Assembly (NCBI RefSeq): GCF_000508245.1
Contig: NC_023062.1
Span: 423,254 to 447,253, forward strand
Length of the DNA stretch: 24,000 bases
Source: Mycoplasma ovis str. Michigan
GTDB taxonomy: Bacteria; Bacillota_I; Bacilli_A; Mycoplasmatales; Mycoplasmoidaceae
Reading direction: 5' to 3'
Shown: positions 9,980 through 24,000 of the stretch, piece after piece
How positions within the stretch are numbered: the stretch's first letter is position 1
Layout: every line of letters starts with the position of its first letter
The notes under the pieces: model-generated
The model's database searches: none
Told to the model about the DNA's origin: nothing
Seen by the model: the letters and a program-made list of their open reading frames with translations, nothing else
Position numbers and translations under genes: made by a program

Positions 9980-10054
9980 AAAAGCCTTAAAAACTCCCTT
10001 AAAACTTACTTTAACATATATAAATAGGGTGCTGAGGGTTAGATTTTAACCCTC

Positions 10055-10472
10055 TTTAGATAATTGAGTGGAATGGTAGGTAGCTTCTCGGCTAACTATC
10101 TTATTGTAGTTTAGTTGAGTGAGAGGAAAGTCCATGCTTACATAGTCTGAGATGACTATAGTGATTGTGTGAGTATATAAGAAATAAAACTCAACGGCTA
10201 GTTCTACTAGTTGATGGCGGAGAACCTTTCTAAATAAGCCAAAGGCTTACATGAGTAATTCTCTGTAAAGTGCCACAGAGACGAGCTTTATAGAAATATA
10301 GAGAGTGAAACGAGGCAAACCCCGCAAGTAAGAAACCTAAATATTGGTGAGGGAACTTAAGCTGAGGAAATGAACGAAGCTTAGGGATCGAATTTGATTA
10401 GATTAATTACCTACTTTTATCTGATTTACAGATAAAAACAGAACATGGCTTATTGTTTTACTTAACTCTAAA
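10055..10472 (+). ncRNA. rnpB: RNase P RNA, Bacillus/Mollicutes type B
   Basis: Conserved P4 strands are gagaGGAAAGTCCatgc (about 10122-10138) and ACAGAACATGGCTTA (about 10437-10451). Also present are GTGCCACAGAGACGAG and the aaaccccgcaagtaagaaacc module. Hand-folded helices: P1 (10055-10073 with about 10456-10472), P2 (ggtaggta with tacctact) and a P3 hairpin. The ends are approximate. Confidence 0.8.
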
Positions 10473-11805: not shown

Positions 11806-14205
11806 CTATTTGTTAGAAAACAATTCATTATAAAGCTCTGAATAGTGTTTTATAGGTTTTAATTGAATCTTATTTAATATTTCTGAAGGGATATCTTCTA
11901 GATATCTTTCACTTTCCTTGGGATAGAAAATAGTATCCACTCCTCCCCTCACAGCAGAAATAACTTTTTCTTTCAATCCCCCAATAGGTAACACTTTACC
12001 TCTAAGAGTCATCTCTCCAGTCATAGCAATGTTGCTAGGAATAGGAACTTTTCTAAAAGCTGACAATATAGCTGTAGTTATAGTAATTCCAGCTGAAGGT
12101 CCGTCTTTTGGAACTCCCCCAGTAGGAACGTGCAGGTTGATATCTATATCTGATCATTTAGTATCGCTTAACTTAAATTCACTTTCATTGGCTTTTATGT
12201 AGGAAAGCGCAACATTTGCAGATTCCTTCATAGTGTCTCTGAGATTTCCAGTAAGAATTAAATTACCTTTTCCTGAGTAGTAATTTATTTCTACTGGAAG
12301 AAGATCTCCTCCATACTCTGTATATGCCATTCCATTAACAACACCTGGAATTGAAAGTTCATCTTTAACTGTATGTTCAAACTTTTCTTTTGAAAGATAT
12401 TCTTTAACAATCTCTACATTAACTGTTAAAGATTTCAATTCTTTATCTAGTTCTTGTCTTTGGATGAATTTTCTAGCTATTTGTGAAAGAGACTGTCTTA
12501 AACTTCTAACACCAGCTTCCCTAGTGTACCTTTGAATAATATATGTGATGGCTTCATCAGAAAAGATTAGCTCATCACTTTTTAAACCATGTTCTTGTAG
12601 AACTTCAGAAACTAAGCTATTTTTAGCAATAGCTAATTTTTCCTTTTCTGTGTATGAAGTTAACCTAATTATTTCCAATCTATCCAGAAGGGCTTCGGGA
12701 ATATTGTCTTCATAGTTAGCTGTAGCTATAAACATAACTTTTGACAAGTCAACCTCTTCCTCTATGTAGTTATCTATAAATTGGTGGTTTTGTTTAGGAT
12801 CTAAAACCTCCAATAAAGCTGATAATGGGTCTCCGTGACTGTTGCTAACCATCTTGTCTATCTCGTCTAGTATCATAACTGGATTATTAACCTTAGCTTG
12901 CTTCAGTCCCTTGATAATTCTTCCCGGCATAGATCCTACATAAGTTTTTCTGTGTCCTCTTATTTCAGCCTCGTCATTTAAGCCACCCAAAGATATCTTT
13001 ACACACTCTCTTTTAAGTCCTTTAGCAATTGACTGCGCTAAAGAAGTTTTTCCAACTCCTGGAGGGCCAGAAAGACAAATAATTGTTCCCTGCAAATTCT
13101 TTGTCTTCTTTTGTACAGCAACAAATTCCAAAATTCTTTCCTTAGCTTTATCCAATCCAAAGTGATTTGCATCCAATTCCTTTTTCACTTTGGCAATGGC
13201 CTGTTGATCTTTGGAACTTTTACCCCAAGGTAAAGAAATTAGTCAGTTTAGATAGTTGTGAGTAATCAAGCCTTCACTATTGGACATGTAACTTGAATAC
13301 TCTAATTTCTTTAATTCTTCTCTAACTCTGTCTCTAATATATTCAGGAGCTTTTTCCTTTTTTAACCAATCTTTAAATTTTTGTAATTCTACATCTTTAG
13401 AAGCTCCTTCCCCTAACTCTTCTTTAATTACTTTCATTCTTTCTCTAAGATAAAACTCTCTTTGTTGTTTAGAGATATTCTTATTTACCTTCTTTGCAAT
13501 GGAACTATTGATCTCATCTTTTTCTGCCTCAGTTAAATATTCGTAATCCAACATAAGAGTAATTCTTTTTGATACGTTTAACTCTTCCAACCATTTTTGC
13601 TTCATATCAACTCCATCTCTGTCGCTCTGCGGTCAGATGTTACACAACTGATCTAGTAATTCTGAACAAGAATCTTTAGTTGGGTTTTGACTTTCTTGGT
13701 TAAACATTTTTTTGATTTTTTCGTATCTTTCTCCCTTCATTTCGAAGAGCTCTTCGAAATACTTAAACAATTGTTCTAGATCAGATTTGTTTTTCAGAAA
13801 AGAGGCATTCTTTTCTTTTAACAATTCAAAATTAGAGAATCACATAGAACCCACATTCTCCAAGCCAGCATATTTCATTATCTTTGGGTTTTCTATCTTT
13901 ACTCTCTGTAGACCCTCAACCTTAACTGTTAATGATCCATCTTTATGCTGTTTAAGAACACTTACTTTTGAAAGTGTTCCGATCTTATACAGATCTACTG
14001 GCAAGGGGAAGTCTACGTCATAATCTTTTTGAGCAATAATTATTATCTCTCCATCAAATGATGCGAGAGAACACTTAATGGAAGCTAGAGAACAATCTCT
14101 ACCAACTTCAATAATGTTTTTGGAGTGCGGGAACACAACCATATTTCTAGCAACTAATAAAGGTAAAGAGCTATGCAATGCTGGTAGATTCAATTTTTCA
14201 GCCAT
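11806..14205 (-). CDS. lon: ATP-dependent Lon protease
   Basis: Five track fragments (11806-12066, 12154-13188, 13243-13605, 13633-13824, 13840-14244) share one frame and join through TGA codons. Walker A is GPPGVGKTS. The catalytic Ser motif PKDGPSAGIT lies in the 12067-12153 gap. NYLN-TGA-LISLPWG matches the conserved Lon Trp. The ATG at 14203-14205 (MAEKLNLPA...) is preferred over TTG 14244. Confidence 0.93.
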
Positions 14206-17685: not shown

Positions 17686-17874
17686 CTAACCTTTTCTCTT
17701 CACTAATCATCATCCACTACTACTCAATGTTTGACCTGACTCCCCATTAACAACTTCCAAATTAGACAAATTAATTTCTGGCTTAAAAGAATCATTACGT
17801 AAATTGGAAGCTACCATTAATCCACCTCCCCCAGCAACTATCATAGGCAAGAAATATTTAACAGACAGCATCAT
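17686..17874 (-). CDS. Hypothetical 62-aa protein with a hydrophobic Gly-rich N-terminus (paralog A)
   Basis: MMLSVKYFLPMIVAGGGGLMVASNLRNDSFKPEINLSNLEVVNGESGQTLSSSGWWLVKRKG under table 4 (two TGA codons). Absent from the track because the standard-code ORF is under 60 aa. Its N-terminus is paralogous to 18041-18229. Confidence 0.45.
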
Positions 17875-18040
17875 AGACTAAAGAAATAATTTTTAAACCC
17901 TAAAAGATTTTATATTTAAATTAATTTTTTTGTGAATAAGTTAATTAAGCAAGTTAAATTTACCGATTTTATTTTATATATCAAAACCAATTAACTACTT
18001 TAATTAACTTATAAAACTTATCTAAGGTTTTAATCTACTT

Positions 18041-18229
18041 TTACTTACCTGAGCCTTTGTATCCTGGAAATGGTAATTCAGTAATAGGACGGATAGTACT
18101 ACTATCTGCAACAAAAGACTTATCCAAAGTTCGACTACCGCCTTCACGAGCTGACCATTGGTTAGCCGCTGTAAATCCGCCAAAAAATATACCTATCATA
18201 GGCATGAAATATTTCAAAGGTAACATCAT
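18041..18229 (-). CDS. Hypothetical 62-aa protein with a hydrophobic Gly-rich N-terminus (paralog B)
   Basis: Track ORF MMLPLKYFMPMIGIFFGGFTAANQWSAREGG... It shares ATGATG...AAATATTTC(A/T)TGCCTATGATAG with paralog A at the DNA level. A TATAAT-like box lies about 35 nt upstream. Confidence 0.5.
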   Translation of the reverse strand: MMLPLKYFMPMIGIFFGGFTAANQWSAREGGSRTLDKSFVADSSTIRPITELPFPGYKGSGK

Positions 18230-18389: not shown

Positions 18390-21300
18390 ATGGATTACCA
18401 AGATCTAATAGAACTATCTGAAGAGATAGAAATTAATAAATCTAAGCCAGTAACTGAAGAAGAATTAGAAAGCTACATAATATCTTTATTTGAGTCTCAA
18501 GGATACTTTCACTCTAAAGGTAGTGATATCAAGAGAGAGAATTATTATGAAGTTTTACTAATAGAAGATCTCACTAACTTTTTAAAACCTAGATATCCAA
18601 AGTTAGATACATACTTTGAAATCTATTCAGATATCAGACACATTGCTGATGATCTGCATAGAGACGATAAAAACTTCTATGAATTCAATAGAGACTTCTT
18701 TAAAAAATTAAGTGATGAAATAATCTACACTAGGGAAAGAGATGGAGAGAAACTCCCCATTTCATTAATAGATTTTCAAAATCCAGAAAATAATATTTTC
18801 AGAATTGTTAATCAATTTGCAGTTGAAGGAAAAAACCCTAGAAGAGTAGACTTAGTAGTCTATATTAATGGGATTCCATTAGTTGTCTGAGAACTTAAAT
18901 CTCCTAGTGATGGGCATGTTGGATTAGTTACAGCCCATCAACAGCTCCAGCTTTATCAAAAAGAAATACCAGATCTTTTCAAATACAATGCCTTCTCAGT
19001 GCTATGTGATGGAATTCATCATGTCAAATATGGAGTTAACTGAGAATCTCTTGAAAACTTCATGGAATGAAAAAAGATCTCAGATGAGGTTAGTTCGGAG
19101 GGAAAAGATAGACTAGATGTCTTAATACAAGGACTTTTTGCGAAAGAAAGAATTATTAAGTACATTGAGAACTTTATTTGATTCAAAGACAGCGATCCCA
19201 AAGAAAAGATTATTGGTAGATACCCTCAATTCTTTGGAGCTACAAAGATGTTTGCAAGTATTTTGAAAAACTTGAAACCTAAAGGATCTGGAAAGGGAGG
19301 AATATATTTTGGAACTACAGGGTGTGGTAAAAGCTACACTATGTTATTCCTTTCTAGGCTACTCCTTAATTCGGAGTCTCTAAACACACCTTCAATTCTC
19401 ATAATCTCTGACAGAGTAGAGATTAGTGAGCAATTATGTAAATTATTTCAAAGTTCTACTAATTATCTTGGAGACAAGAATATTGAAGATATTTCTTCTA
19501 GACAAAAATTGACTTCATCTTTAAAGAAATTAGTACAGGGGGGAGTATTCTTAACTAATCTACAGAAATTTGAAGAAAGTTGTGAGATACTTTCTGAAAG
19601 AAACAATATTATTTGCATTTCCGATGAAGCTCATAGATCAAACCATAATTTTGATGTTGAGCTGAAAGAAGGGGGAGGAGAAACTTGTCCATTTGCTAAA
19701 AGACTTCACGAGTCTTTACCTAATGCAACTTATGTAGGTTTCACCGCTACACCCATAGATCAAACTATGGATGTATTCGGAGAAATAGTTGACCGATATA
19801 CGATGGACGAATCCATCAGTGATGGATTCACTGTGAAACTTAAATTGGAAGTTAAAAAAGGATGATTAAAGCTTCAAGATGAGATCGCGCTAAAAATTAT
19901 AGAAAAATACAGAGAAGCGAGGGAAACGGGAACTAGTGAGGAATGCATTGAAGAGGATCAAAGAATAAGAACAAAACTAAAGGCTATTTGTAATGTTCAA
20001 AGCAGAATAGAAAAAATAACTGATGATATTGTTGAACATTATGAAGCCAGAGTTAACTCTGGTGAAACTGTTTGCGGAAAAGCAATGATAGTTACTGTTG
20101 GTAGAGATATTGGATATAAAGTTTGAAGAAGGATCAGGGAAATAAGGCCAGAATGAACAATTAAAGAAAATGAAGCGGGAATGTCAAAGGTTCAATTGGT
20201 TATGACAAGAGCCAAAAGTGATGGGGAAGAAATGTACCAATTAATAGGTAATGATGAGTACCAAAAAAAATTAGCTAGAGAGTTCAAAAAGGAAGATTCT
20301 GATTTCAAGATAGCAATTGTTAGTGATAAGTGATTAACTGGATTTGATGCTCCTTGTTTAGACACTATGTACCTAGACAGAATATTTCAAGATAAAACGC
20401 TTATTCAGGCTGTATCCAGAGTTAATAGGAAATATCTAAGAAAAAACTATGGTTTAGTTGTTTCTTATTGGCCTATTGAAAAATACTGAAAAGATGCTAT
20501 TAACAAAGTAGGGGGTAGTCAAAGAGGTGGATGTACCTTGGAGGAAGTCATCTCTGCAACTAAAGATAAATTGGAGTTGTTGAATAAACTGTTTCACGAT
20601 TTTGATAGAAAAACATTTTTAAGCATCCACAACGAAAATGATCAATCAGGTATGGTAGTTAGTTACATAAGGGAAAAAGGTAAACAGTTTCAAGACAAAT
20701 TTAGTGAATTATATTTCGAATTCATTCACTGATATGACAGTTGATCTAGTGTTGAATTAAGTAAGGAATTAGGTCAAGAAAGGGCTTTCTATAAGCTAAT
20801 TTACAAATACTGATCAAGACATATTAAAAAAAGCTGGACTCCTATGTCAGAAAAAACTAAACAAGAAATATCAGAACATATGCAAAACATATTTTTTTCT
20901 GGGGAAATGTCCCAGCATTCTTTTGGTTATTTAAATGTTTCTTTCCCCTCCGAGCAAGAATATAAAAATAAAGAAGTTACCAGAGATGACAAACAAAGAA
21001 AAGCTAAAAAATTAGGAGAAGCTCTTGCGAAAATACATAAAAGTTTTGGGAGAAACTTTTTAGAAAGATTGGCTAAATTGCAAGATGAATATGAATCTCT
21101 GTATGAGGCTCAAGGTAGGTTAGAAGCTATTGAAGATGAGGAAGAAAGAAAAAAAGCTATGCAGGAATTTAATTTAGAAGAAAGACTTAAAGCTCTTGAT
21201 GAAAAAAGAGATGAGTTAGTTGATGAGGGTTACAGAAAAATGAAAGAGCATGAAATTAAAGGATGAACTCAGGAAGAGCAAGTCTTCTTTGATCAACTGA

Positions 21301-21569
21301 AAGAATTTAATGAAAATTTTGGTTTTGGACTAGAAGAGAAACAATTGTTAGATTTCACAAGAGATCTAAATGAACTTTGAAATGAAAGAAAGGGATGAGG
21401 AGATCCAATCAAAAGATTCACTTTATTATCTCAGTTAAAAATGGATATATATAACCTAATAGATAAATACAACTTTTATATTTCAAATGAAACATTTGAT
21501 AACACAGATGTTGTGATTGTTGAAGAACTAGTGGATTGTTTTAGAAGAATGACTGAATCAAGTTTGTAA
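18390..21569 (+). CDS. hsdR: Type I restriction enzyme, R (endonuclease/helicase) subunit, 1059 codons
   Basis: Track fragments 18390-18890, 19248-19865, 20538-20732 and 20844-21266 are in one frame, and the gaps contain only TGA stops. Nuclease motif VDLVVYINGIPLVV-W-ELK. Helicase motifs GTTGCGKSYT (I), DEAHRS (II), FTATP (III), LTGFDAP, QAVSRVNR (VI). Coiled-coil C-terminal region. Confidence 0.92.
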
Positions 21570-21667
21570 TTTATACTTCTCGAAAAATATAACTTAAGTT
21601 ATCAGAAAGAAGTTAATTTTTAACTCTCAAGTAGGTTAGTGCCTAGTAGTCTAAAATCCAACAAACC

Positions 21668-22034
21668 ATGTTTCTCTGATTAAAAGTTTTAGTTGGAGTA
21701 ATTGCCAAAGGGGCTGGAGCTTTTGCTCCCTTTAAATTGATGGCAAGCCCAGATTCGACTATTAAAGAATAATGCATATCTTGAATTAGATCTTTTAGGA
21801 GATACAAATAAGGCAAAGATTTCTTTGGAAGAAGGGCCTAGTAGTTGAAGATATTTTCATAATGTTTATACACAGGATGTTTGTAAAGTAATAACTCCTA
21901 TGTCTGGGGAAGATAGATTACGTTGTCAACTCATGGAAGGGTGAAATCACATCGTTATAAACTTCGAAATTTTTAGTGGGCATTTAAGGTCAAAAAGTGG
22001 CTTTAAAGCCACTTTTATCTGGTTATTTTTTTAG
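21668..22034 (+). pseudogene. Possible frameshifted remnant of a leader-bearing secreted protein gene
   Basis: A 34-codon ORF (ATG 21668, TAA 21770), MFLWLKVLVGVIAKGAGAFAPFKLMASPDSTIKE, resembles the leader of 10504-11043. It overlaps a 110-codon table-4 ORF in another frame (21702-22034, ...AYLELDLLGDTNKAKISLEEGPSSWRYFHNVYTQDVCKV...) that has no ATG near its 5' end. Confidence 0.35.
21993..22032 (+). terminator. Intrinsic terminator-like hairpin downstream of hsdR
   Basis: Perfect 24-nt palindrome aaaagtggctttaaagccactttt (21993-22016), flanked by an A-run upstream and followed by a T7 run at 22026-22032. Confidence 0.55.
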
Positions 22035-22306
22035 CTGTGAGTAACTAGGAGAAAGGGGAAAGTTAGTCTTAAAAGGACTGATTGGTCCTTCTTCTTCTTT
22101 CGGGCCTATAAGTTAATGTTCTTCGTGCACACACTTTTTATAGGAATTCTTTTAAAACTTATTTTCTACTAAACTATTTGTTTTTGTCTAGTAAGCAATT
22201 AATCTTTCAAGTCTTAAAGACAGAACAATAAATAAAAATACTAATAACTTTTAAAAAACCTATTCTTTAGTTAAATTTAAGGAATTCCAGCGAACTCAAC
22301 ACTGGC

Positions 22307-22339
22307 AAAAAATATAAAGGCGGCGCCATTCTGGGCGCC
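22307..22339 (-). terminator. GC-rich hairpin plus T-run downstream of hsdS
   Basis: GGCGCC-attctg-GGCGCC (22322-22339), an all-GC 6-bp stem in an AT-rich spacer. On the minus strand it is followed by gcctttatatttttt. It lies about 80 nt past the hsdS stop. Confidence 0.45.
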
Positions 22340-22420
22340 AAAATTGATTATATATCATTCATTATTTTTTATGCAAAAAATAAAAGATTTATTTGAAAAT
22401 TAAAAACTCTAAAAGTAAAT

Positions 22421-23594
22421 CTATTCTAAGTCCTCTATTCGGCATTTTTGTAATCTCAAACACTTAGAAATTATTTGTTCATTATTTTTTTGTAGTTCAA
22501 AAATTGGACTACAAATTTGGTTGAATTTGTCGATTAGGTGCTGGGGCGGAAGTTTGACTTTAAAGCTTTGGAATTTTAAAAGATTAAAGGAAACTATATC
22601 AGTCGAATTGTTCAATAATCTCTTTAATTTTGTGACATTTTCCCTAATCAAAAAGTAAATATAAGAAATAGGCAAATTGTTTTTGCCCCCCCCACTCAAT
22701 GACCCACAAATTGGGAGAAATAATTAATGTCTTGAGTTGATTGATTAATAAACGCCCACCTTGACGACCAGCCGTTCCAACAAATATCAATCCATTTTCG
22801 GGAATTAATTTAGCTTTGCATCTTTTAAATCCGGCTTCAGTCAATTGTTCAGAAGTTGAATTTAAAAACTTGCATTCAAAAATGTCTTTTGTTCTTAAAA
22901 AAGGTATTCCCCCTTGCTTACAAAAGTAGAGTTTTTCTAAATAAAAATTGGATTTAGGGGGCTGAGAGCCTTTCAAAACTTGAAACAAATTACCTAGAAT
23001 TTCACTGGTGAATTCTTCTAAATTGTCGAACAAAATATGGTAATAAGATTTCATCCACCCTTCAAGTAATTCGTTAATTTTTCTTTTGTTTTGTATTAAC
23101 TTCTCGATTGTTTGATATTTGTAGACTATCTTTTTTTGTTCTTCTAATGCAGGAACTACAATCGGTATAGAACAAAATCTTTCATAGGTCAATTCTTCTC
23201 TTACCCCCCCCGTAGAGAGATATCTAGCAAGCTTATCGAATGCAATTCTTTTAATTCACAATTCCAGATAATGATTTATTAATTTATCTGGTTGTTTTAT
23301 GTAGAAAACTACATAAGTATTAGAAATTTGAATAGCATCTAGTTGACTGTTGAGAGCGATGGAGAGTTTATCTCCATTCCTTGCTGTAGATGGTTTGTAA
23401 CAAAACTGATCTCTTTTGACAATTTGTAATTTATTCTTAATGTTGGATAAATTTACAATGCGACTTTCCACAAAACATTTTTCAATACTTAATCCCTTAA
23501 TTGGTATGTTTTTGTTATAAATCGCTACCCCTTTAACTCTTTCAATATAACCTCCTAATTTATTCATCCTCTTTAAAAAGCTATTTTTGACCAA
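22421..23594 (-). CDS. hsdS: Type I restriction-modification specificity subunit, frameshifted at a G8 tract (currently truncated after TRD2)
   Basis: ORFs 23256-23594 and 22644-23192 join in frame through TGA 23256-23258. The central conserved region is CSIPIVVPALEEQKKIVYKYQTIEKL. ORF 22421-22699 carries the distal conserved region (FKVKLPPQHLIDKFNQICSPIFELQKNN) but is in another frame. The frames meet at the G8 run (C8 on +, 22686-22693), and G7 would fuse them. Confidence 0.85.
22686..22693 (-). repeat. Homopolymer G8 on the coding strand (C8 on +) at the hsdS TRD2 / distal conserved region junction
   Basis: Read directly: ttttgccccc cccactc. The two overlapping hsdS ORF fragments change frame exactly here. 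Confidence 0.95.
23204..23211 (-). repeat. Homopolymer G8 on the coding strand (C8 on +) at the hsdS TRD1 / central conserved region junction, currently in frame
   Basis: Read directly: ttaccccccc cgtagag. It encodes ...LSTGGVREEL... Confidence 0.95.
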
Positions 23595-23772
23595 AATAAT
23601 GAAAATCCTGCCCTTGAATACTTATACCTTCCTTTAAAAAATTATTAATAATTACTTTTTTAAAAATAAGCAACAATTAATGGCTTTTTACAAAATATGG
23701 AAAAACTAATGGTCTAAGGGCATTAATTAGTTTCCGACACAACAAGAAAAAACAAATTAATTAATAATTAAG

Positions 23773-24000
23773 TTGAAGTTTTCGGGGGGGGCATTAACGA
23801 AGGGGAAAATTGCTGGTGGGTGTGTAGTACTTCTGGGTGGTACTACTTTTACAGGCTTAGTTTGTACAGAAATTTATAAAAATGGAGTATCTAGTGCTTT
23901 AGCAAAACTAGGAGGTTGGGTTGTTGAAATTTTTAATTGAAATGGAACTTCTTCTTCACAATCTTCATCACAACCTATAGATCCTATCCCAGCAATAACT
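23773..24000 (+). CDS. Hypothetical surface or membrane protein (possible lipoprotein), 5' part, with a G8 tract in codons 4-7; continues past the right edge
   Basis: The frame is open from 23761 to the window end: (TTG)KFSGGALTKGKIAGGCVVLLGGTTFTGLVCTEIYKNGVSSALAKLGGWVVEIFNWNGTSSSQSSSQPIDPIPAIT. There is a basic n-region, a hydrophobic Gly-rich h-region, a Cys, then a Ser-rich stretch. No ATG is present. Candidate starts are TTG 23773, ATT 23767 and ATA 23764. Confidence 0.5.
23784..23791 (+). repeat. Homopolymer G8 inside the leader-coding region of the 23773 gene
   Basis: Read directly: ttcggggggg gcatt. Confidence 0.95.

Follow-up and report, generated by a model that had tools for sequence, protein, structure and literature searches.

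A G8 homopolymer within the second target recognition domain of a Mycoplasma ovis hsdS gene as a candidate phase-variation switch

The stretch of DNA analyzed here (the window) comprises 24,000 nucleotides (nt) of the genome of Mycoplasma ovis str. Michigan (NC_023062.1, positions 423,254 to 447,253), has a G+C content of 32.7%, and carries genes which are intact solely under genetic code 4, in which TGA specifies tryptophan. Two of these genes belong to a type I restriction-modification (R-M) system: hsdR, a single intact open reading frame (ORF) of 1059 amino acids (aa) on the plus strand (positions 18390 to 21569) with 15 TGA-Trp codons under code 4, and hsdS, encoding the specificity subunit, which lies on the minus strand and is convergent with hsdR across a spacer of approximately 850 nt. 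The window HsdR displays 100% identity to P0015, a “type I restriction endonuclease,” and harbors HSDR_N, ResIII, SWI2_SNF2, and T1R_D3-like domains. The hsdS reading frame is broken at a homopolymer of eight G residues (G8) at positions 22686 to 22693, and we propose that the gene is, on balance, probably a phase-variable contingency gene, controlled by slipped-strand mispairing at this tract within its second target recognition domain (TRD2).

The plus strand at positions 22686 to 22693 reads CCCCCCCC, which corresponds to G8 (C8 on the plus strand) on the minus, coding strand, where the tract specifies residues W292, G293, and G294 (TGG GGG GGG) and represents the frameshift point. The G8 allele, designated frame A (22644 to 23567, minus strand), extends from an ATG at 23567 through ...NLWVIEWGGQKQFAYFLYLLFD to a stop codon at 22644 to 22646, thus encoding 307 aa under translation table 4; its product matches Pfam family PF01420, shares 51 to 53% identity with HsdS of M. 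wenyonii, and is composed of 294 native codons, covering TRD1, the central helix, and most of TRD2, followed by 13 missense codons (QKQFAYFLYLLFD). The overlapping frame (SGGGKNNLPISYIYFLIRENVTKLKRLL...CRIEDLE) stops at 22421 to 22423 and, read from the tract onward (KNNLPISYIYFLIREN...LRLQKCRIEDLE and stop), remains open down to 22421, such that the distal segment (22421 to 22685, minus strand) specifies, in the shifted frame, the remainder of TRD2, the distal helix, and the stop codon. Both frames had been noticed in a preliminary description of this DNA, and the table 4 translation agrees with the stop at 22644 and the EDLE terminus reported there. The accompanying claim that one G fewer would restore a continuous HsdS is likewise borne out, as the G7 translation (...VIEWGGKNNLPISY...) is unbroken, with its last codon at 22424, although the computed length is 381 aa rather than the approximately 390 aa then estimated. 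This repaired protein matches PF01420 (Methylase_S) in two stretches (E=1.7e-13) and aligns colinearly across the junction with P0002, a full-length homologue of 385 aa in which the tract-equivalent place (QGANLQLPITFIYFLIREN) is free of G-runs. The addition of two G's (G10) also yields an in-frame product, of 382 aa, whereas G9 leads to a 314-aa dead end; G7 and G10 are, therefore, in frame and G8 and G9 out of frame, with unit changes within the ORF shifting the reading frame. A terminator-like, GC-rich hairpin, detected by a consensus scan only, is located on the minus strand at 22321 to 22340, approximately 80 nt past the stop of the distal frame, and is consistent with a single transcription unit spanning all 381 codons of hsdS.

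The location of the tract within the HsdS fold was assessed by alignment to the structure of M. jannaschii HsdS (1YF2) and from the secondary structure of an AlphaFold model of P0002 (pTM 0.61), in which confidence is good for TRD1 and the helices but low for TRD2; domain borders were drawn from these two sources. The best PDB matches of the model are HsdS subunits, i.e., PacII S, 1YF2, M. genitalium 1YDX, 3OKG, and EcoKI. In the P0002 model, the central helix spans residues 141 to 180, and the tract-equivalent place is followed by a helix (residues 303 to 322), a strand (residues 339 to 343), and the distal helix (residues 346 to 383). Mapping of this model onto the window protein indicates the presence of both long, conserved, scaffold-type helices, the central one at residues 141 to 180 (approximately 23028 to 23147) and the distal one at residues 342 to 379 (approximately 22430 to 22543), with the remainder of TRD2 after the tract occupying residues 295 to 341 (approximately 22544 to 22684). 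The 1YF2 sequence, which aligns to both halves of the repaired protein, places the tract at approximately residue 119 to 126 of a TRD, well before the last helix and strand of that TRD, and here, too, the tract-equivalent position precedes the conserved helix. While the preliminary description had positioned the tract between TRD2 and the distal helix, both mappings thus put it (residues 292 to 294) inside TRD2, and it is predicted to lie in the last third of this domain and not at its border with the helix. As a consequence of this position, the product of the G8 allele would be devoid of approximately 47 residues of TRD2 plus the whole distal helix.

This placement bears on the alternative that the 307-aa product is an active half-HsdS, two copies of which would pair via the central helix and confer a symmetric specificity, such that the tract would alter specificity rather than silence the system. 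Such a mechanism is proven for NgoAV and has been proposed for many hsdS genes bearing simple sequence repeats (SSRs) (PMC9577141, PMC7383803), and neither TRD1 nor the central helix is missing from the truncated product. The position of the tract is, however, not between the TRDs, so that approximately 110 residues of an incomplete TRD2, extended by 13 missense residues, would be likely to misfold or clash, while the active NgoAV fragment comprises 208 of 410 aa and terminates directly behind the central region; an active half-subunit is, in our estimation, quite unlikely. The analogy with NgoAV that had been drawn from the sequence consequently transfers poorly, given that the NgoAV half-HsdS consists of TRD1 and the central region (PMC9577141) and a broken TRD2 is retained here, and the altered specificity that had been offered as an alternative to an OFF state loses ground for the same reason, a plain OFF state being likelier where the tract lies within TRD2 and leaves that domain broken.

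With regard to the partner subunits, the cognate hsdR lies next to hsdS and is intact. For hsdM, an intact gene was located on a separate contig (L017) of the near-identical M. ovis isolate ERZ27230476 (99.97% identity), where it spans 353 to 1918 and encodes a 521-aa product with 74% identity to M. wenyonii HsdM. It is followed there by a decayed hsdS2, the two forming a second type I locus (L017, 353 to 3110). In hsdS2, the conserved YLE(K/E)LYFC motif is interrupted by a stop codon, the frame shifts at a G8 tract (2721 to 2728), and it changes a further time. With this hsdM-linked copy decayed, only the window gene, among the two hsdS copies of M. ovis that were seen, is a single slippage step from intact.

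The window gene was compared with hsdS copies of M. wenyonii Massachusetts (L014) and M. wenyonii INIFAP02 (L002 to L005 and L015), as well as with hsdS2 of M. ovis ERZ27230476 (L017). Tracts at the same site as that of the window gene are carried by the hsdR-linked copy L014 (G8 at 14076 to 14083; out of frame and restored by G9), by L002 (G7; out of frame and restored by G8), and by L003 (G8), which is in frame and encodes 393 aa. An earlier site within TRD2 is occupied by G8 tracts in L004, L005, and L017, all of which are out of frame, the last mentioned also exhibiting a stop codon and another frameshift, and a third site is represented by a C8 tract in L015, in which a second frameshift is also present. 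Correction at the tract only is sufficient to convert the window copy, L014, L002, and L004 into clean reading frames of 381 to 391 aa with no other lesion, and the frame downstream of the tract is open to the conserved C terminus in all copies compared. The direction of the correction is -1 in the window copy and +1 in L014, L002, and L004, which fits stochastic slippage and not a fixed recoding signal. The nearest database protein to the repaired HsdS is a 306-aa M. wenyonii “restriction endonuclease subunit S,” truncated at the same place, and a protein database search with the repaired HsdS matched no M. ovis HsdS; the M. ovis gene has probably been annotated as a pseudogene or left unannotated, rendering the missing ON allele in the database uninformative.

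The opposing corrections are also pertinent to the possibility that G8 is fixed and the gene expressed regardless, RNA polymerase slippage or ribosomal frameshifting generating some full-length HsdS. Out-of-frame genes with poly(A) tracts are known to be expressed through slippage in insect endosymbionts, and recoding of this nature would explain both the predominance of G8 irrespective of frame and the selection on downstream frames. It would, however, require opposite shifts in homologues (the ribosomal equivalent of +1 in the window gene and -1 in L014, L002, and L004), no conserved slippery-site or stimulator context is apparent beyond G8-CA, and sibling tracts, as described below, change length at the DNA level. 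A/T runs of at least 9 are, moreover, much more prone to slippage than G/C runs of 8, and recoding is accordingly rated as very unlikely.

The post-tract segments were compared as codon alignments of approximately 84 codons, which are saturated and derive from paralogues with possible gene conversion. Across all pairs, the proportions of synonymous (pS) and nonsynonymous (pN) differences were 0.44 to 0.85 and 0.06 to 0.35, respectively, with a pS of 0.67 to 0.85 between species; for the distal segment of the window gene versus the M. wenyonii copies, pN was 0.22 to 0.35 and pS was 0.70 to 0.85. The resulting dN/dS ratio is approximately 0.08 to 0.25 in most pairs, including those in which both copies are OFF (0.076 for L014 versus L002), and the shifted distal segments thus appear to be under purifying selection, unlike those of an old pseudogene.

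A further alternative is a recent, plain pseudogene, the G-run in this case being a mutational hot spot that inactivated a redundant orphan hsdS of a reduced genome, without any selected switching. Decaying hsdS copies do occur elsewhere (hsdS2, with a stop codon and two frameshifts, and L015, with two frameshifts), among the six copies that have either no lesion or one at the tract alone, five are out of frame, and many truncated or orphan hsd genes have been documented in hemoplasma papers (PMC3196708, PMC3091866). Arguing in the opposite direction are the four OFF copies in two species that possess no lesion beyond the tract, the low dN/dS of the distal segments even with synonymous sites saturated, the retention of the tract at homologous sites across species despite such saturation, and the rare codons of which it consists; L003, in addition, is in frame through its G8. 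Simple decay is, therefore, considered unlikely, although more probable than the other alternatives.

That the tract is over-represented and maintained against codon usage and base composition is evident from the 4,519 housekeeping codons of the window, which served as the reference for codon usage. In these genes, GGG accounts for 13% of Gly codons, ACG for 4% of Thr codons, and TGG for 27% of Trp codons, and none of 25 Gly-Gly pairs is written GGG-GGG. A second G8 tract of hsdS, at 23204 to 23211 on the minus strand, is in frame and encodes T-G-G-V (residues 119 to 122, at the end of TRD1) as ACG GGG GGG GTA, the same residues being written ACA GGA GGA GTT in M. wenyonii L002. Based on window codon usage, the chance of W-G-G being encoded as TGG GGG GGG is approximately 0.005, and that of T-G-G being encoded as ACG GGG GGG is approximately 0.0007. 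The window contains six G/C runs of at least 6 in its 24 kb, three of which are 8-mers, all within 22686 to 23791, versus 0.02 expected. L014 contains 6 such 8-mers, a further 19 occur within 66 kb of INIFAP02, and expectations across the three data sets are 0.02 to 0.05, i.e., a greater than 100-fold excess. The spectrum of G/C run lengths is bimodal, being approximately zero at 6 to 7 and rising to a spike at exactly 8, 7- and 9-mers being nearly absent. The runs typically read G8-C-A/G, for the most part G8-C-A, and many G8 tracts fall within the first 1 to 17% of paralogous membrane-protein ORFs.

The third G8 of the window (23784 to 23791, plus strand) is located 11 nt into an ORF which starts with TTG at 23773, is divergent from hsdS, runs past the end of the window, and specifies a hydrophobic, signal- or transmembrane-like N terminus (MKFSGGALTKGKIAGGCVVLLGG...). 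It resembles the GGG-coding tracts in the N termini of M. wenyonii membrane paralogues (L003, 9027 to 9034; L004, 8649 to 8656), and the ORF is probably another contingency gene. In M. wenyonii Massachusetts, a G8 tract (L014, 16565 to 16572) occurs 13% of the way into the ORF of a paralogue of ATP-synthase subunit C (98 aa, PF00137), indicating that the tracts are not limited to surface-protein and hsdS genes.

Length changes were observed directly at sibling tracts, where they have an ON/OFF effect on the genes concerned. Between Michigan and the independent M. ovis assembly ENA ERZ27230476 (L012), 16,923 nt differ by five substitutions and one indel, the latter affecting a poly-G tract at 6660 to 6666 that is one residue longer in the ENA assembly (G8) than in Michigan (G7). 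Reading from the minus-strand ATG at 6670, the Michigan sequence gives MSPPRYWKRYWLH followed by a stop (OFF), while that of the ENA isolate encodes a full 138-aa paralogue, MSPPTLLKKILTS... (ON). In a similar manner, 12,312 nt of M. wenyonii L015 and L016 differ by seven substitutions and one indel, G9 versus G8, which corresponds to a disrupted ORF in one and a 210-aa ORF in the other. The M. ovis tract directly follows the start codon of the gene for the 138-aa paralogue (6255 to 6670, minus strand). This gene and its neighbor at 5818 to 6207 (minus strand) are tandem small-protein paralogues with approximately 77% nucleotide identity, an insertion that separates rplW from rplB within the ribosomal-protein operon; the DRR8465xx strains (approximately 98.8% identical) contain one copy only of this paralogue.

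Could the hsdS tract itself be an assembly or sequencing error, with a true length of G7 and an intact gene? Homopolymers are error-prone, and the independent M. ovis assembly breaks exactly at the tract. The Michigan genome was, however, obtained from blood-derived DNA with Illumina coverage of approximately 1,500x (HiSeq) plus 1,000x (MiSeq) (PMC3907730), which indicates that G8 is the real majority allele, and out-of-frame G7 or G8 tracts are likewise present in three other independent assemblies generated by different pipelines (CP003703, QKVO01, and Logan), making an error highly improbable. M. ovis contigs sought via rplB, L21, HsdR, and the 62-aa neighbor (see below) each stop short of, or end on, the hsdS tract, and a metagenome DNA pattern scan using the tract flanks with a variable G-run returned no match. 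Contig breaks at such tracts extend to the Logan contig L018 (hsdM-hsdS2 locus), which ends on the G8 of hsdS2, and to the SPAdes contig L004, which ends 7 nt beyond a G8; these fit read-level heterogeneity and sequencing difficulty alike and are regarded as neutral.

Under the proposed phase-variation model, slipped-strand mispairing during replication would alter the length of the G8 tract in the TRD2 coding sequence. Mollicutes are known to be deficient in MutSLH mismatch repair, a feature which is expected to raise slippage rates. In the G7 or G10 state, a complete subunit of 381 or 382 aa, consisting of TRD1, the central helix, TRD2, and the distal helix, would be able to assemble with HsdM and HsdR, and type I methylation and restriction would be possible. 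In the G8 state, the majority allele of the sequenced in vivo population, or in the G9 state, the frame would be lost after residue 294, and the product, without the last approximately 47 residues of TRD2 and without the distal helix, the pairing partner of the central helix, would most probably be inactive; the G8 product is presumed to be a functional null. Type I activity relying on this subunit, in terms of both methylation and restriction, would consequently be OFF. The in-frame G8 at 23204 to 23211 may furnish a second, independent route to the OFF state.

The notion of a truncated OFF state that is revertible by slippage, as advanced in the preliminary description, thus gains from the conserved tract, the tract-only lesions, the selection on the distal segment, and the length changes at sibling tracts, while reversion at this locus, and indeed switching of the hsdS tract itself, we infer from tract conservation, the kept distal segment, and the mutability of its siblings. 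Several observations weigh against a selected switch. The only independent contig to reach the tract (L012) ends on it, at window position 22693, with error-like bases, such that no second sequence runs across it. Additional lesions are carried by M. ovis hsdS2 and M. wenyonii L015, implying that some hsdS copies in these genomes are truly decaying. Nearly all tracts are exactly G8 regardless of frame, when a freely drifting tract might be expected to spread more in length. Furthermore, hsdM and the second hsdS were read from isolate ERZ27230476 and not from the Michigan record, and the P0002 model has a pLDDT below 50 for residues 209 to 301, which form part of TRD2.

Adamczyk-Poplawska is reported to have described the poly-G of the NgoAV hsdS gene in 2011. 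In that system (Neisseria gonorrhoeae FA1090), the poly-G run is situated downstream of TRD1 and the central region, and the active 208-aa half-subunit is associated with a change of specificity from GCAN8TGC to GCAN7STCA (PMC9577141). The M. ovis gene is comparable in that the length of a poly-G tract in hsdS sets full-length versus truncated product, the reference genome bears the truncated form, and a one-G deletion fuses the ORFs. It differs in that the tract, at residues 292 to 294 of 381, is within TRD2 and yields no clean half-subunit, and ON/OFF control is, therefore, expected. The principle, poly-G control of hsdS, is accordingly known, and what is new is its placement inside TRD2, with ON/OFF control expected instead of a specificity switch.

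A survey of SSRs in REBASE (Atack et al. 2019/2020, PMC7383803) considered mononucleotide runs of at least 9 in full-length annotated genes, found SSRs in hsdS to lie “invariably” between the two TRDs, and includes an AG[n] hsdS of Mycoplasmataceae, its main text being without hemoplasmas. Owing to this threshold and the restriction to full-length genes, the G8-bearing, frame-shifted hemoplasma hsdS genes fall outside the survey. Shared with the surveyed genes are a simple repeat in hsdS of a host-adapted bacterium, multiple hsdS per genome, and a proposed phasevarion role, whereas the hemoplasma tracts are G8, are within TRD2, and mostly occur in frame-shifted genes which are unannotated or truncated.

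Poly-G/C contingency loci in surface-protein and R-M genes are well established in Campylobacter jejuni, Helicobacter pylori, and Neisseria. The hemoplasma tracts resemble these in their genome-wide excess of G/C homopolymers, frame-dependent ON/OFF effect, and length differences between near-identical isolates, but belong to an uncultivable, AT-rich, code 4 Mollicute and have lengths sharply at exactly 8. A further known route to phase-variable type I specificity is site-specific, recombinase-driven inversion, with inverted repeats flanking the hsdS genes involved, as exemplified by the hsd loci of M. pulmonis and by ivr/SpnD39III of S. pneumoniae. Multiple hsdS genes and a host-adapted pathogen are common to these shufflons and M. 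ovis, as is, under the model above, phase-variable type I specificity, the proposed switch in M. ovis being a frameshift, with no credible inverted repeats flanking hsdS. An inversion or shufflon mechanism was rejected, as only short, AT-rich, chance inverted matches were present in 21400 to 24000 and no recombinase ORF was found in the window.

A broader proposal, which we put forward tentatively and at somewhat less than even likelihood, is that the M. ovis/M. wenyonii clade harbors an undescribed, genome-wide “G8 phasome,” with approximately one G8 per 3 to 6 kb, in which surface-protein paralogues and scattered hsdS genes would switch independently. A single HsdM (with HsdR) might then be re-targeted or silenced combinatorially, amounting to a multi-hsdS phasevarion coupled to antigenic variation in chronic blood infection, the ON/OFF design inside TRD2 having been missed by REBASE surveys. 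Hemoplasmas are unculturable, cause chronic cyclic bacteremia, and have almost no known regulators. Slippage switches gating type I specificity, if real, would provide them with a stochastic epigenetic and defense switch, and their methylomes and restriction barriers would represent population mixtures. The same would account for the “truncated” or “orphan” hsd genes of every published hemoplasma genome, G8 loci being easily dismissed as pseudogenes and lying below the thresholds of existing phase-variation surveys. The G8 tracts, including those of surface-protein paralogues considered as candidates for vaccines or diagnostics, would in addition be the sites at which in-host variation is to be sought at the read level. 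Hemoplasma genome papers report truncated and orphan hsdS genes and have speculated on phase variation of M. haemofelis via tandem repeats (PMC3196708, PMC3091866, PMC3958358); a literature search combining hemoplasmas with homopolymer tracts found no relevant paper in the searchable library.

As regards the surroundings of the locus, hsdS of M. wenyonii Massachusetts (L014, 13179 to 14350) is on the same strand as hsdR and overlaps the end of that gene, which implies that an inversion or rearrangement of this locus distinguishes the two species. The M. ovis spacer between hsdR and hsdS contains a 110-codon ORF (21702 to 22031) without a Pfam match, together with two terminator-like hairpins. 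Positions 1 to 3592 of L014 carry an additional hsdR-hsdM pair and, after it, the gene for a protein of 571 aa, the C-terminal half of which is HsdS-like; this set ends approximately 6.4 kb upstream of the hsdR-hsdS locus compared above, in which hsdR begins at 10001. Both L014 (14452 to 15662) and L015 (8464 to 9658) also encode, near G8 tracts, an NgoFVII-like restriction endonuclease that is divided between two ORFs (RE_NgoFVII and RE_NgoFVII_C).

Rfam and tRNA scans detected nothing at the hsdS locus; elsewhere in the window, they identified ordinary housekeeping RNAs, namely, a class B RNase P RNA at 10072 to 10457 (219.7 bits) and tRNA-Thr(GGT) at 8931 to 9004. Between rsmH and hsdR, two paralogous 62-aa ORFs are present on the minus strand, at 17686 to 17874 and 18041 to 18229 (MMLSVKYFLPMIVAGGGG... 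and MMLPLKYFMPMIGIFFGG...), and this region (17686 to 18229) constitutes the end point of several short-read contigs from other M. ovis samples.

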